IMG/VR virus record: IMGVR_UViG_3300045988_094968 | Span: 1-38,111 of that record | DNA: 38,111 nt | DNA from: a virus | Reading direction: 5' to 3' (one strand) | In this document: positions 6,556-37,766 of the stretch, piece by piece | Layout of the letters: each line of letters begins with the position of its first letter | Numbering within the stretch: position 1 is the first letter of the stretch | Position numbers and translations under genes: made by a program | Notes under the pieces: model-generated | Seen by the model: only the letters and a program-made list of their open reading frames with translations | The model's database searches: none | Told to the model about the DNA's origin: nothing

Positions 6556-6888
6556 ATGGCTACTTTCAGCAAAAGAATAGAGATCCAGCAGCTTGCCACG
6601 GAGACGGACAATATAGGAAATCAACCGAAAGAATGGAAAACGGTAGTAAAGCCGTGGTGTTCTGCCGTAATTACAACGGGAAAAGAATACTACGAGGCGG
6701 CGCAGATAAACGCCGAGAACGATATTACGTTCAAAATGCTGTACTCCCGAAAAATCCACGAAATGAAGCCCTCGGAAATCAGAATTATTTACAACGGCAA
6801 GGCTTACGATATCAAGCGTATCACAGACTACCGTGAACAGCGGCGAACTCTTGAAATAAAGGCGGTCGAGATAAATGGCAGAGATTGA
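6556..6888 (+). CDS. Head closure / head-tail adaptor protein
   Basis: RBS GAGGAGGGG. 110 aa, with 'FSKRIEIQ...TDNIGNQPKEW...WCSAV...ITFKM' resembling SPP1 gp16/H_T_join proteins. Confidence 0.65.
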   Translation: MATFSKRIEIQQLATETDNIGNQPKEWKTVVKPWCSAVITTGKEYYEAAQINAENDITFKMLYSRKIHEMKPSEIRIIYNGKAYDIKRITDYREQRRTLEIKAVEINGRD

Positions 6889-7222
6889 CATAGGCAAGAT
6901 TTTCTCCGATTTCAGCGAGGAGATAAAATCGCAGATCGACAAGGAGCTTAAAACTATCGCAAGGGAGACTGTTTCCGAGCTTAACGCAACTTCGCCGAAA
7001 AAGTCGGGAGATTTTGCGAGGGGCTGGCGATATTTGAAAGAGCGTGGCAGTTCAGAGATAAGAATAACTATCTCAAACCGCAAGAAATGGCAGCTCACAC
7101 ACCTGCTTGAAAGCGGTCACAAAAATCGTGACGAAAAAACAAATAGCAGAGCGTTTCCTCACGTTGCACCTGCTAATGAAAGGGCGCAGAAGAAGTTCCG
7201 GGAATTTATGGGAGATAAATAA
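6875..7222 (+). CDS. HK97 gp10-like neck/tail-attachment protein
   Basis: 115 aa, overlapping the upstream gene by 14 nt. Assigned by position and the 'SPKKSGDFARGW' pattern. Confidence 0.6.
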   Translation: MAEIDIGKIFSDFSEEIKSQIDKELKTIARETVSELNATSPKKSGDFARGWRYLKERGSSEIRITISNRKKWQLTHLLESGHKNRDEKTNSRAFPHVAPANERAQKKFREFMGDK

Positions 7223-17421: not shown

Positions 17422-17473
17422 AAATCATATCTTTGTTCAATTTAGACCGCCTAACTGCTCGAAGATATGATTT
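17422..17473. repeat. 52-bp element with perfect 12-bp terminal inverted repeats; candidate attP
   Basis: AAATCATATCTT (17422-17433) and AAGATATGATTT (17462-17473) are separated by 28 nt and abut the integrase stop codon. Confidence 0.35.
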
Positions 17474-18908
17474 ACATTTTATAAAGAATTTCGATTATTC
17501 CTTTTGGTTTAATATAAGTGATTCTGTCAACCAATCCTCTGAGGGTGTAGTTCTTCAGGGCTTCGCTTGTCTCGTCACTTTCAAGAATTTTCAGCGATGC
17601 CATTATTTTCCTTGAAATAATTTCCTTTATATCTTTGTCAGACTTGGGAAGAACCTTGGAGGCTTTGGCTTCGAGTTCAGCTATATGGTCTTGAATTTTC
17701 TGCTTAGCAGTCTTATATTCGGCAAGTGTATCAACTCCTGCTTCGTAAGCCTCTCGCACTCGCGCGAGCTTTTTCTTTTCACGCGCGATCAGGCTTGAAA
17801 AGTCGGGAGCGGATGAGCTTGAAGCTCCTGTTGGCTCGACAGCTACTTCAAAATTCTGAGATTTGGCATCGGATCTAAGTTTTTCCAGAACTGCTGCATT
17901 TATTTTTTTAACTGTGATACTATGTGATGTTTTGCATACACCTCTTGCATAGTTGTGGCATTGCAAGGATTTAGCCGCAGACTGATTGACGAGAGTAGCT
18001 CCACACGCGCTGCAACGTACTATGCCTTTCAGCATAAACTCGGACGGGGTTTGTCTTGCGTGCTTAGGATATCGCTGTTTCAACTCAGAACGTTTTCTTT
18101 GGGCTTGTTCAAATGTTTCCGTGTCAATTATAGGCACATGATTTCCGTTGACTATAAGAGTGTTTTCAGCATCTTGGTGATAATGGTCGCTGATGTTTTT
18201 TTCTTTACTACGGCGGAGTTTTCCTATGTAGACAGGATTTGTAATAATGTATTCGATTGCGCGGTTTTCAAAAAAATTGCCTTTTGCAGTTCTCAGCCCC
18301 AAATCATTAAGTTCCCGTGCAATTTCCCGTGTGCCTTTACCTGCAATAAAATCAGCAAAAATTTTTTGAACTATGGGCGCTGTTTCAGGGTCGGGAGCAA
18401 AAATTCCATCTTTCATCATATAACCGTAGGGCGGCTGAGAAACAACACCGCCGCGGGAGAATTTTTCAGTCATGCCGCGCTTGACTTCTTCTGCAAGATT
18501 CAGGCTGTAATATTCGTCCATAGCTTCGATAAGAGCCTCGATGAGAATGGACGTGTTATCATCTCCGAGCTGTTCCGAGATAGATACAACATCTATGCCG
18601 CATTGCTTGCGGAGCATGGACTTATAAACAATACTGTCCTGCCGATTTCGGGCAAAGCGTGAAAATTTCCACAACAGTATCACGTCAAATGGTTTGGGCT
18701 TGATCTTGGCTGTACCGATCATGCGCTGGAATGACGGACGTTTATCTGCTTTTCTGCCGCTGATTCCCTCATCGACAAAAATAAATTCTTCCGGCAGTAT
18801 CATGTCATGGTCCTTGGCATACTTACGGATAGCTTTTATCTGAGAATCGGGGGAGTACTCGATCTGATCATCGGTTGATACTCTTATATATGCCGCTGCG
18901 GTTTGCAT
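17472..18908 (-). CDS. int: Large serine recombinase (integrase)
   Basis: 478 aa. It has the N-terminal resolvase motif 'AAYIRVSTDDQ...SPDSQ', a recombinase domain, a zinc ribbon 'CSACGATL...CHNYARGVC', and a C-terminal coiled coil. Confidence 0.92.
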   Translation of the reverse strand: MQTAAAYIRVSTDDQIEYSPDSQIKAIRKYAKDHDMILPEEFIFVDEGISGRKADKRPSFQRMIGTAKIKPKPFDVILLWKFSRFARNRQDSIVYKSMLRKQCGIDVVSISEQLGDDNTSILIEALIEAMDEYYSLNLAEEVKRGMTEKFSRGGVVSQPPYGYMMKDGIFAPDPETAPIVQKIFADFIAGKGTREIARELNDLGLRTAKGNFFENRAIEYIITNPVYIGKLRRSKEKNISDHYHQDAENTLIVNGNHVPIIDTETFEQAQRKRSELKQRYPKHARQTPSEFMLKGIVRCSACGATLVNQSAAKSLQCHNYARGVCKTSHSITVKKINAAVLEKLRSDAKSQNFEVAVEPTGASSSSAPDFSSLIAREKKKLARVREAYEAGVDTLAEYKTAKQKIQDHIAELEAKASKVLPKSDKDIKEIISRKIMASLKILESDETSEALKNYTLRGLVDRITYIKPKGIIEILYKM

Positions 18909-18923
18909 GGTTATACCCCCTTT

Positions 18924-19325
18924 TTAATAATTATCGCTGCTCAACACATCGAAATGCCGTCTGTAGCGCTTCGGGATATTGATGCCTACAATATATCCTA
19001 TCGAGTGCAGAAAATCGGAAATAACGGCAAATCCGTCCTTGTAAAAGGCTTCTATGCGCTTATCCTTGAAAGGAATGTTCTTATAATCGGGCGGGCATAC
19101 AAACGTCCAGTCCGCTCCGCTCTTGTCAAGGACGATACGGAAGAACTTATCAATATCAGTATCTTTGTATCCTGCTTTCATGAGGAGAATATGGTGCTCC
19201 ACGGCCTCGTCTATTTGGCTCATAATCGCTGTTTTGCCGTCAAATGATATAAGTACGAGCAGCGGCTCATCAGCTCTCACAGCCGCATTTACGCTCTCCT
19301 CTGAGGGGTATCTGATTATATCCAT
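18924..19325 (-). CDS. Hypothetical protein (133 aa), probably co-transcribed with the integrase
   Basis: RBS GAAAGGAG lies 7-8 nt before the ATG. The gene ends 15 nt upstream of the int start. No motif was recognised. Confidence 0.6.
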   Translation of the reverse strand: MDIIRYPSEESVNAAVRADEPLLVLISFDGKTAIMSQIDEAVEHHILLMKAGYKDTDIDKFFRIVLDKSGADWTFVCPPDYKNIPFKDKRIEAFYKDGFAVISDFLHSIGYIVGINIPKRYRRHFDVLSSDNY

Positions 19326-19367
19326 TCATTTGCTCCTTTCTGATTGTTTGTTTCGATTATTTCATTT

Positions 19368-19473
19368 ATTTCAACTCACACGCCTCATGCGAGGCGTGAC
19401 CCTGACAGCTATGCAAATAATCAACATATGTCAAAATCATTTCAACTCACACGCGCCTCGTGGGAGGTGGGAC
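19368..19473 (-). CRISPR. Two CRISPR-repeat-like units (type I-C-like) flanking a 38-nt spacer-like segment; no cas genes in the genome
   Basis: Minus-strand reading: GTCACGCCTCGCATGAGGCGTGTGAGTTGAAAT (19400..19368; perfect 8-bp stem, 4-nt loop) and GTCCCACCTCCCACGAGGCGCGTGTGAGTTGAAAT (19473..19439; degenerate). Both share the 15-nt tail CGTGTGAGTTGAAAT. The layout GTC, stem-loop, then G(T)GA(G/T)TTGAAAT matches recalled I-C repeats (e.g. GTCTCACCCTTCATGGGTGAGTGGATTGAAAT). Confidence 0.55.
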
Positions 19474-19548
19474 ATTGTCAGCCTATGATGCGTGGATTAA
19501 ATACGCACTTTATTTGTTTTCGCGATTTTCAGAGAAAATTCTAAATTA

Positions 19549-20586
19549 TCAACAGGATATTGTATCTTCGCTTTCGCCGTTGACAATTTCTAACAGTTCA
19601 TTTACCGATATTTCTTTTTTAGTCGCTATAATGTAAATGAACAACTTACCCGCTGCGAAACTATCATAAACAGCATTATGGGCATCAGATATAAAAACTT
19701 GTGCAGATTCACATATGTCCGCCAATTTATAACTGCTTTTGCCCTTCAAAAATTTTCGTGACAGTTGAAGCGTATCATAAATGGCTTTGTCTTTAATTGA
19801 ATCCAAACCGTTTACATATAGATGTTTTACATCAAACGGAGCATTATGGGCAACAAGCGGGAGGTCTTCTATGAAGTCATTAAAGCTATCTATAACTTGG
19901 TAAAACTTCGGGGCATTTTCCACCATTTCATCTGTTATCCCGTTAATATCGGTTATTTCTTCTGGGATAGGTTTTCTCGGTTTAATATAAGTGTTGAATT
20001 TTTCTACAGGCAGGAAATTTTTAAATTTAATTGCAGAAAGCTGAATAACATCATTGCCGCCTGTTTTTAACCCTGTTGTCTCAGTATCAAATGCAATAAA
20101 ATCTTTAATGGATTTGAGCGAAGTAGATTTAATTATACTTTTATACTCTTTATCTTCAATATCCAACTGCTTGTTGCGATTTTTCCTTTCACCGCTCAGG
20201 GTAATTTTATATTCAGGAATAGAATCAACAGTTTCTTTAAACTTAATGCGATCTTCGGCTATAGATTCTTCGCGTTGCCGTTTAAGACGTTCGTACCGTT
20301 CTTCTCTCTCTTGTTTTTCCAATTGCTCTTGCAATATCCTTTTCCTGCGTGCCTCGTTTATTTCACCTTGCTTTTTTAGGTATTCTGCTCTCTCTTCGGC
20401 TTCACGTCTTTCACGTTCGACCTTTCTTTTATACTCTTTGAACTCAATTTCTTCTTGCTTTTTAGACTTTTTGGGAGTTCTTTTAAATAATGTAATGTCA
20501 TTTAGTGTGATATTCTTATGATTTGTTAGTTCGGCAATCAGTGCTATGATGAATGTAATAATAATTATGTATACATAAATCCTCAT
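19549..20586 (-). CDS. Membrane-anchored coiled-coil protein with a C-terminal DEDDh (DnaQ-like) 3'-5' exonuclease domain
   Basis: Start ATG 20586 lies 6 nt after GGAGGA; the track start at 20676 overlaps the repressor gene. The TM segment is 'IYVYIIIITFIIALIAEL', followed by about 100 aa of E/R/K-rich coil. The exonuclease motifs are ExoI 'FDTETTGL', ExoII 'VAHNAPFDVKHL' and ExoIII 'HNAVYDSFA'. Confidence 0.8.
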   Translation of the reverse strand: MRIYVYIIIITFIIALIAELTNHKNITLNDITLFKRTPKKSKKQEEIEFKEYKRKVERERREAEERAEYLKKQGEINEARRKRILQEQLEKQEREERYERLKRQREESIAEDRIKFKETVDSIPEYKITLSGERKNRNKQLDIEDKEYKSIIKSTSLKSIKDFIAFDTETTGLKTGGNDVIQLSAIKFKNFLPVEKFNTYIKPRKPIPEEITDINGITDEMVENAPKFYQVIDSFNDFIEDLPLVAHNAPFDVKHLYVNGLDSIKDKAIYDTLQLSRKFLKGKSSYKLADICESAQVFISDAHNAVYDSFAAGKLFIYIIATKKEISVNELLEIVNGESEDTISC

Positions 20587-20633
20587 AATAAATCCTCCAA
20601 TATCCCTATTCATTGTTGTAGTGAGTACTGACG

Positions 20634-21371
20634 TTACTGCGGCAGTTCTGCCGTGCCTATTACGCGACCGACACAAATGATTTCTCCGTCCTCGGGGTAT
20701 ATATCAGGGTATTCATCGTTGTGTGAAATCAAACGATCATTGCCTTTTTCTTTTATATATCCCTTATTGTTTTGGATAAACAATCCAATTTTTCCAACAG
20801 GGACATCTGTATCAGATACCACATATACAATATCGCCGTTCTGGTATGTTGGTTCCATACTGCGACCGTCAATCTCGACGGCGAAATCCGCCTTTTGTGC
20901 TTCGGGCGTGTCAACGACCTCTAAATCTTCCCAATTATCGGCGTCCTCTAAGTCGTATCCGCAACCTGCCGATACCTTGTGTACGCTGAAACGCTTGAAA
21001 ACAATGATTTTCGGCTCACCTGCCATACCTCGCTTGGCAGCTTCGCCCAACTGTATCATTGTGTCCATAATGATCTGTCGTATATTTTCGGGCAGCTTGC
21101 AGTACAGATCTAAGGCTTCTTTCTCGCCGATAGCCAGATTCAACATGGCTATCGGATTTTTTTCGGATTCACGTCCGAGCAGATAGTCAACAGTTACGTT
21201 AAAATGATTTGCAAGTACTATTAAACCGTCTGCATTAGGTTCAGATGTACCATTTTCATATCGCTGATACGCCTGCTGTGTTACTCCGACTATTTTGGCG
21301 ATTTCAGATTGGCGTTCATTTTTGGATTCGCGTAACTTTTTTAATATAGCGCCACGTTCTGATCTATCCAT
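20634..21371 (-). CDS. CI/LexA-like repressor (XRE HTH plus S24 peptidase)
   Basis: ATG 21371 lies 8 nt after AAAGGAG. The HTH is 'QSEIAKIVGVTQQAYQRYENG'. A possible Ala-Gly cleavage site is 'VSAGCGY'. The catalytic 'DGRSMEP' serine and a downstream lysine are present. Confidence 0.9.
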   Translation of the reverse strand: MDRSERGAILKKLRESKNERQSEIAKIVGVTQQAYQRYENGTSEPNADGLIVLANHFNVTVDYLLGRESEKNPIAMLNLAIGEKEALDLYCKLPENIRQIIMDTMIQLGEAAKRGMAGEPKIIVFKRFSVHKVSAGCGYDLEDADNWEDLEVVDTPEAQKADFAVEIDGRSMEPTYQNGDIVYVVSDTDVPVGKIGLFIQNNKGYIKEKGNDRLISHNDEYPDIYPEDGEIICVGRVIGTAELPQ

Positions 21372-21393
21372 AAAATCATCTCCTTTCAATAAG

Positions 21394-21423
21394 ATTATAC
21401 AACAAAACTGTGTACAAAGTCAA
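21394..21423 (-). promoter_or_regulatory. Repressor promoter (TTGACT-N18-TATAAT) with embedded palindrome
   Basis: Minus strand reads TTGACTTTGTACACAGTTTTGTTGTATAAT. The spacer contains ACTTTGTACACAGT (12/14 symmetric). Confidence 0.6.
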
Positions 21424-37322: not shown

Positions 37323-37766
37323 TTGAAAAAAGCCTGTCGATACTGCGGAAAATATCACGACCGTGGTGAGACGTGCCCGAAAAAGCCTAAGTATTTCTGT
37401 GACGCTTCAAGCGCGGAGTACAAATTCAGGAGTAGCTTTAAGTGGAGAGTAAAGCGCGAGGAGATAAAGAAACGGGATAATTACCAGTGCCTTGCCTGTC
37501 GTGCAAATCTTTCCGGAACGATTCGCAGGTTCAACCCGTATGAATTATCTGTGCATCACATCACACCACTGCGGGAAGACATTTCAATGGGACTTAATGA
37601 CGGTAATTTAATTACTCTGTGCAGATATCACCACGAGCAGGCAGAAAGAGGAAAAATTCCGCGAAAAATTCTTTTTGATCTTGTTAAAAATTTACAGTGT
37701 ATCCCCCCCTACCCCTTAGATGTTGAATTTTCAAAACGCGCCGACACCAAGGAATGGGGTCTGTAA
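37323..37766 (+). CDS. HNH endonuclease (packaging-associated)
   Basis: TTG start. 'CRYCGK...YQCLAC...SVHHITPL...NLITLCRYHHEQAE'. It lies directly upstream of terS, as in HK97-like cos phages. Confidence 0.88.
   Translation: MKKACRYCGKYHDRGETCPKKPKYFCDASSAEYKFRSSFKWRVKREEIKKRDNYQCLACRANLSGTIRRFNPYELSVHHITPLREDISMGLNDGNLITLCRYHHEQAERGKIPRKILFDLVKNLQCIPPYPLDVEFSKRADTKEWGL

Follow-up and report, generated by a model that had tools for sequence, protein, structure and literature searches.

The lysogeny block and its exonuclease gene

The whole stretch of DNA analysed, here called the window, is a complete virus record of 38,111 bp from a temperate gut phage of the siphovirus type. A 55-nt repeat is common to both ends, indicating that the genome was assembled as a circle. 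Genes for the terminase large subunit, structural proteins, a holin and an endolysin lie on the + strand, and the - strand carries a lysogeny block consisting, in order, of a repressor gene, an exonuclease gene, two short repeats, an ORF for 133 aa and a serine integrase gene (Table 1). A reading made earlier from the sequence alone (the sequence-only reading) had described the exonuclease gene as co-oriented with the repressor and integrase genes and as AT-rich, and both statements were confirmed. Its GC content is 34.6%, compared with 44.3% for the genome and 43-45% for the flanking genes, and this low GC is a moron signature that marks the gene as putative cargo.

The repressor gene lies 47 nt upstream of the exonuclease gene, and a promoter and terminator scan of the window found no terminator-like site between the repressor promoter or the repressor and the exonuclease gene. 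The promoter-like site before the repressor gene is likely to be the promoter of a repressor-exonuclease transcript. The 345-aa start of the exonuclease is favoured over upstream TTG or ATG starts, as a GGAGG sequence precedes its ATG with a 7-nt spacer.

Elsewhere in the genome, an HNH endonuclease gene (window positions 37323-37766) precedes the terminase genes (37-1881) across the circular junction. An HNH gene before the terminase genes is typical of HK97-like phages that use cos packaging, and the arrangement hints that the window phage has cohesive ends.

Table 1. Features of the lysogeny block and of the exonuclease gene product (window coordinates)
Feature	Position	Strand	Basis
Large serine integrase gene, downstream end of lysogeny operon	17472..18908	-	Pfam Resolvase + Recombinase + Zn_ribbon_recom
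Exonuclease gene (P0001), 345 aa, predicted membrane-tethered DEDDh	19549..20586	-	ORF and translation; Pfam RNase_T E 1.3e-31; phrog_192 E 4.6e-44
DEDDh 3'-5' exonuclease domain, residues 161-341	19564..20106	-	Pfam, PDB profile match, Foldseek, AlphaFold2
Exo III, H303 and D308 (AHNAVYD, H-x4-D)	within 19663-19680	-	Codon positions read from sequence
Exo II, D252 (HNAPFD)	19831-19833	-	Codon positions read from sequence
Exo I, D167/E169 (DTETTG)	20080-20088	-	Codon positions read from sequence
Conserved linker, residues 123-160	20107..20220	-	Alignment A1; AlphaFold2 pLDDT 90-97, well packed
Stalk, residues 42-122, 81-residue E/K/R-rich single helix	20221..20463	-	AlphaFold2, pLDDT 95-98; composition and heptad analysis
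Basic cluster KRTPKKSKK, residues 35-43, predicted cytoplasmic side; also recombination junction with siblings	20458..20484	-	Sequence; L185/L186 identity starts at window 20485
Hydrophobic membrane anchor, residues 3-21, predicted N-out/C-in	20524..20580	-	Kyte-Doolittle 19-residue window >1.6; AlphaFold2 helix 2-28
Shine-Dalgarno GGAGG, 7-nt spacer to ATG at 20586	20594..20598	-	Sequence reading
CI-type repressor gene (HTH_3 + Peptidase_S24)	20634..21389	-	Pfam; phrog_4
Promoter-like site TTGACT-18-TATAAT before repressor gene	21394..21423	-	Consensus scan, 11/12 matches

Architecture of the predicted protein

The 345-aa protein was found to have four parts, an N-terminal anchor, a helix rich in E, K and R, a conserved linker and a DEDDh exonuclease. 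An AlphaFold2 model built on 32 homologues had a mean pLDDT of 91.6. The single N-terminal transmembrane (TM) helix of the sequence-only reading was recovered both as a hydrophobic segment and as a helix in the model, and residues 29-40, between this helix and the stalk, were modelled as disordered.

The region after the anchor had been described as about 100 aa of highly charged coiled coil. A highly charged helix is indeed predicted, but it is shorter, at 81 residues or ~12 nm if fully helical, and the coiled-coil reading was downgraded. The stalk is 59% E/K/R with 24 opposite-charge pairs at i/i+4 spacing, and hydrophobic residues fill only 0.30 of the a and d positions in the best heptad register. 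Given this composition, the charge pairs and the low heptad occupancy, a rigid spacer formed by an ER/K single alpha-helix is a more probable reading of the stalk than a coiled coil.

The linker (~40 aa) has the consensus ..I.LS.EKHNRN.. with a nearly invariant R137 (alignment A1), and the distance from I128 to D167 of the exonuclease stays within 36-41 aa in almost every TM-anchored member of the family. No homologue of the linker was found in Pfam or the PDB, where profile matches start only at profile position ~148-154, which is the start of the exonuclease.

The exonuclease domain

The description of a complete DnaQ-like domain with DTETTG, HNAPFD and H-x4-D motifs was upheld. The Pfam RNase_T match spans residues 164-316, and all five DEDDh catalytic residues, D167, E169, D252, H303 and D308, are intact; across alignment A1 E169 never varies and conservation of D167 reaches at least 90%. 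Among solved structures, the best sequence match was to the PolC exonuclease domain (2p1j, E 1.1e-33), and full-length PolC, the DinG exonuclease of Staphylococcus aureus, Pol III epsilon and Cas2-DEDDh came next. The structural comparison agreed with this set, as Foldseek matched the domain (pLDDT 94-99) to 8h18, 2p1j, 2ido and 8zef with probability 1.00, and RNase T, ExoX and a TREX1 homologue (Plex9.1, rank 23) came lower. By fold and motifs the domain is a member of the DEDDh (DnaQ-like) superfamily, with a predicted exonuclease activity. As the closest relatives are DNA exonucleases and RNase T ranks lower, the comparison favours DNA 3' ends, rather than RNA, as the substrate.

Family members and related phage exonucleases carry public labels such as 'DNA polymerase III subunit alpha', '...epsilon' or 'DNA polymerase' (e.g. 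BFVD A0A8S5NXT7). These names, and the similarity to the exonuclease domains of PolC and epsilon, would make the protein an ordinary replicative proofreading subunit, a reading that is effectively refuted by the other evidence. For replication the phage encodes a primase-polymerase/D5-type helicase, an SNF2 helicase and further proteins, but the window has no DNA polymerase gene to which a proofreader could belong. The exonuclease gene itself lies on the lysogeny strand and apart from the replication module, and its product has a membrane anchor and a stalk. The NCBIfam equivalog cut-offs were missed widely (143 vs 873 for PolC and 94 vs 223 for dnaQ_proteo). Thus, the DNA polymerase III subunit annotation is almost certainly wrong for these small, exonuclease-only proteins.

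Family members and membrane topology

An exhaustive search identified 296 clusters (50% identity) at E ≤ 1e-30, and a word-indexed search found ~80 close relatives named as Ruminococcus or Oscillospiraceae MAG proteins. The distribution of the family in reference genomes is sporadic. A near-identity DNA search against cultured phages gave no match, and a protein search of cultured phage records returned matches to the exonuclease domain only (residues 163-316) and no characterised relative. The two of these that were inspected, phiCDHM11 gp33 and phiCT9441A gp78, have no anchor.

The DEDHD residues are kept in 219 of 227 aligned members. The remaining eight lack them at the catalytic columns, and five of these are full-length (P0045, P0053-P0055 and P0227). 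In four full-length members, P0045, P0053, P0054 and P0055, four of the five catalytic residues are replaced (S/E/H or Q/deletion/K), and the P0055-type gene, found at loci L091 and L092, occupies the usual position between the repressor and integrase genes. These four look like pseudo-enzymes rather than products of pseudogenes, and such apparently dead variants indicate that catalysis is not required in every member of the family.

One or two N-terminal TM helices are present in ~70% of the family. Most of the ~30% without a TM helix begin with either an MGxFD-type amphipathic helix or a CxxC...CxxC zinc ribbon. The stalk varies from 27 to 177 aa (median 75). In single-TM members the median count of K and R residues rises from 0 ahead of the TM helix to 4 behind it, whereas in two-TM members both flanks are basic. 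Many N-termini are acidic, and mostly there is no basic n-region, the basic cluster following the TM helix; a reading of the N-terminus as the signal peptide of a secreted nuclease was rejected on these grounds. The charge bias of the family, together with the two-TM, amphipathic-helix and zinc-ribbon variants, predicts that the nuclease sits in the cytoplasm with a short N-terminus outside. The side of the membrane had been raised in the sequence-only reading as a point on which its proposal could fail, and the predicted cytoplasmic placement is in its favour.

Genomic context in related loci

The genetic context was surveyed at 17 distinct loci outside the window (including L002-L004, L100 and L101). 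At 16 of these the gene came directly behind one for a CI-type HTH repressor, or behind genes for a repressor and an ImmA peptidase, with a gap ranging from a 4-nt overlap (L091) to ~110 nt, and every contig that extends further has an integrase gene of the serine or tyrosine family downstream. The sole exception, L100, encodes a protein without a TM helix in a chromosomal setting. The window gene, between the repressor and integrase genes and in the same orientation as the repressor, fits the same class. The architecture, which the sequence-only reading had connected with prophage immunity, was thus found to be conserved in prophage immunity regions and not in housekeeping contexts, so that a finding which would have counted against that reading, homologues mainly in non-mobile, housekeeping settings, was not obtained. 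Given the tight coupling to the repressor gene in related loci, it is probable that the exonuclease gene is co-transcribed with the repressor and that the protein is made in lysogens.

The constant linkage to repressor and integrase genes could also mean that the protein serves the prophage's own biology, whether by processing DNA or RNA ends and so influencing how lysogeny is maintained or induced, by assisting integration or excision, or by turning over the lysogeny transcript at the membrane with a layout like that of RNase Y. RNase Y, an HD/KH endoribonuclease, has the same layout of TM helix, helical region and nuclease, and RNase T is a structural relative of the domain. However, the repressors at the surveyed loci are of S24-type, HTH-only and ImmR/ImmA-type, the phage backbones differ and both integrase families occur, which points to no single chemistry of induction or recombination. 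The closest relatives of the domain are DNA proofreading domains, and the low-GC moron signature argues for an accessory rather than a core role. A role in the prophage's own biology is therefore considered unlikely, though it is the least unlikely of the alternatives to defence.

Replacement of the immunity region and anchor in sibling phages

Two sibling sequences, L185 and L186, match the window at 98-99% identity on either flank of the immunity region. However, the sequence corresponding to window positions 21587-20485 is unrelated in both, so that the operators, the repressor gene and codons 1-34 of the exonuclease gene have been replaced. These 34 codons are exactly the membrane anchor, and the recombination junction falls just after it. 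As the anchor has been swapped together with the immunity block, it appears to be a generic, exchangeable part of the protein. The body of the exonuclease gene shares 98.5% DNA identity between the window and these heteroimmune siblings, and there is a hint that the exonuclease does not exclude close kin.

Two 16-nt repeats at 19368-19383 and 19439-19454 lie ~95 nt downstream of the exonuclease stop codon, in agreement with the sequence-only reading, in which CRISPR-like repeats adjoined the gene. Identity between the window and L185 drops to 79% in the region of the two type I-C-like repeats (window 19366-19527), from ~98% in its flanks, a pattern that fits different spacers between conserved repeats. 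No match to an Rfam CRISPR-DR family was found at the window repeats, and the repeat motif was absent from the 20 other loci checked. A functional link between the exonuclease and the repeats was rejected on account of the motif missing from those loci, the negative Rfam result and a similarity to Cas2-DEDDh that was no better than that to PolC, DinG or epsilon. As the repeats are absent next to the exonuclease gene in other related loci, they are regarded as independent cargo in the same slot.

The 133-aa ORF (18924-19325), between the repeats and the integrase gene, is also present in sibling L186, and its product had no Pfam, PHROG or PADLOC match. A two-gene module made up of the exonuclease gene and this ORF was considered and rejected, because the ORFs between the exonuclease and integrase genes in L181 and L180 are non-homologous. 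In L180 a 94-aa ORF in this position (6806-7090) had weak or marginal matches to ParE/YafQ-type toxins. This match and the window repeats suggest that the slot collects accessory cargo of an anti-competitor or addiction kind.

Comparison with known systems

Superinfection-exclusion genes located between the repressor and integrase genes include Sie2009 of lactococcal P335 phages and ltp of the Streptococcus thermophilus phage TP-J34. They share with the window gene the slot, the co-orientation with the repressor, membrane association and lysogenic expression, the last being predicted here. However, their products are small membrane proteins or lipoproteins that have no enzymatic domain and block entry outside or within the membrane.

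The exonuclease domains of PolC, Pol III epsilon, DinG and Cas2-DEDDh share the fold and all five catalytic residues of the window protein, but are soluble parts of replication, repair or CRISPR-adaptation machines, and lack the anchor, the stalk and this linker. Conversely, only DEDDh profiles matched the window protein, and no Cas2, polymerase or helicase part was found in it. TREX1, a eukaryotic DEDDh exonuclease held in the ER by a C-terminal tail anchor, removes foreign DNA from the cytosol. TREX1 and RNase Y offer an analogy in that a membrane tether restricts the nucleic acids that the nuclease meets, though neither has specific homology to the window protein beyond the general DEDDh fold.

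The sequence-only reading had stated that no described system has this layout. This is now outdated, as SNIPE (PMC13190303) is of the same kind and Mpr (PMC12596739) is a membrane-anchored 3'-5' exonuclease, although both are non-homologous to the window protein. SNIPE (PD-lambda-1) of Escherichia coli crosses the membrane once with its N-terminus outside, and an elongated region in the cytoplasm leads to a GIY-YIG nuclease that cleaves lambda DNA while it is being injected (Saxton et al., Nature 2026, PMC13190303). Its DUF4041 domain binds DNA and the tape measure protein, and the anchors of its homologues are highly variable, with one TM helix in 59%, two in 7% and other membrane-targeting modules in the rest (PMC13190303). 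SNIPE without its TM helix is toxic via its nuclease, and SNIPE does not block plasmid transformation (PMC13190303).

The window protein resembles SNIPE in being a single polypeptide with an N-terminal anchor, an elongated part and the nuclease last, in a predicted topology, and in having exchangeable anchors; for both, discrimination of self from non-self is proposed to come from location at the site of DNA entry. It differs in having a predicted end-dependent DEDDh exonuclease, a probable ER/K helix and its own 40-aa linker, and in being encoded in the lysogeny operon of a Gram-positive prophage. Pfam gave no GIY-YIG (E ≤ 0.1) or DUF4041 match in the window protein, which by sequence comparison is a non-homologous analogue of SNIPE and not a member.

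In Mycobacterium smegmatis, Mpr (multicopy phage resistance), a 3'-5' exonuclease anchored in the membrane, depends on its nuclease activity for defence against phage D29 and against phages that inject linear DNA (PMC12596739). Its nuclease region resembles no known nuclease and is joined to DUF4352 (PMC12596739). The likeness to Mpr lies in a membrane-anchored 3'-5' exonuclease, the activity being predicted in the window protein. However, Mpr is chromosomal rather than prophage cargo and has no sequence relation to the DEDDh protein. DNA-end sensing and membrane localisation are treated in a 2026 review as separate principles by which nucleases achieve specificity for non-self, and the window protein would combine the two. 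No TM-anchored DEDDh defence protein was described in the literature searched.

Proposed function

The sequence-only reading had suggested superinfection exclusion, and this idea is still the best explanation available for the locus, though it is put forward tentatively. The protein would be an exonuclease stationed at the entry site that is expressed in lysogens and protects them from incoming DNA ends, a proposal that we regard as the leading one while giving it slightly less than an even chance. The gene would be co-transcribed with the repressor, so that the protein is made in lysogens. With a very short N-terminus outside, the rigid stalk of ~12 nm would carry the linker and the exonuclease into the cytoplasm. 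As the enzyme would need a free 3' end and would be confined to a shell beneath the membrane, its natural substrates would be the ends of linear DNA entering the cell, with the genomes of superinfecting phages as the main target. Trimming of 3' strands or of 3' cohesive ends would leave an incoming genome unable to circularise, and the circular chromosome with its integrated prophage would be spared without a sensor or autoinhibition.

The intact DEDDh residues and their retention in most of the family, the predicted cytoplasmic placement, the repressor-linked context, the low GC and sporadic distribution expected of cargo, the putative anti-competitor or addiction cargo in the same slot and the precedents of SNIPE and Mpr together argue for defence. 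Counting against it are the dead variants, the ~30% of members without a TM helix, a PADLOC match that is to a generic DEDDh domain profile only (PDLC01247), and the hint that kin escape. DnaQ-type enzymes are usually distributive and attack one of the two strands, and trimming alone may for this reason not destroy a genome.

The same architecture and presumed lysogenic expression would suit a gatekeeper against other incoming DNA as much as phage exclusion. The protein would then degrade transforming strands, and so guard the prophage from recombinational deletion or limit rival mobile elements. In naturally transformable Firmicutes the transforming single strands enter 3'-end first, and single-stranded 3' ends are preferred by DnaQ-type enzymes. 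SNIPE leaves plasmid transformation unblocked, so that phage and transformation phenotypes are separable. However, no competence genes were seen in the neighbourhoods examined, and genes in this slot of Gram-positive prophages classically serve phage exclusion; a role chiefly against such DNA is improbable.

A broader form of the proposal, which we consider only slightly less doubtful, is that geometry alone would make the protein a sensor-free gatekeeper, acting at any free 3' end within ~15 nm of the membrane and hence on anything entering end-first. It would trim the 3' cohesive ends or 3' strands of injected phage genomes, preventing circularisation, and degrade transforming single strands, shielding the prophage from curing by recombination, and the full-length dead variants found in the same slot would cap ends instead of digesting them.

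Abortive infection was also considered. The protein would be a toxin that stays harmless at the membrane until infection frees or activates it, perhaps through cutting of the K/R-rich stalk, whereupon it degrades the DNA of both host and phage. The toxicity of SNIPE without its TM helix is in line with this, and both the disordered residues 29-40 and the K/R-rich stalk could be targets of a protease. Nevertheless, an intact circular chromosome offers few substrates to an exonuclease, and there is no conserved protease or sensor partner adjoining the gene, the cargo between the exonuclease and integrase genes being variable and non-homologous between loci. We judge this explanation to have as small a chance as the restriction of transforming DNA, and exclusion of superinfecting phages remains the preferred reading.

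If confirmed, exclusion by this protein would be a third, unrelated way, after SNIPE and Mpr, of destroying DNA at entry, and hundreds of 'DNA polymerase III subunit' database entries would be corrected. Its specificity would come from end-dependence and tethering, and not from binding of the phage injection machinery. Prophages of gut and rumen Clostridia (Ruminococcus, Oscillospiraceae), which are abundant but hard to work with, would thereby have a system of this kind assigned to them for the first time. The variable length of the predicted ER/K stalk and the exchangeable anchor would provide a simple, engineerable test of the reach of the nuclease against harm to the chromosome.

Prophage insertion near a spore-coat gene

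A gene of the Mn-catalase/CotJC type was found next to or around several of these prophages (L082, 8506-8904; L085, 8559-9273; L088, 8562-8960; L101, 7103-7672; L185, 6946-7416), and in L085 the fragment of this gene lies directly beside cotJB and cotJA. As the prophages adjoin or interrupt this gene, the serine integrase seems to target a gene of the spore-coat operon. Insertion there is reminiscent of the intervening elements skin and SPbeta, which are found in sporulation genes.
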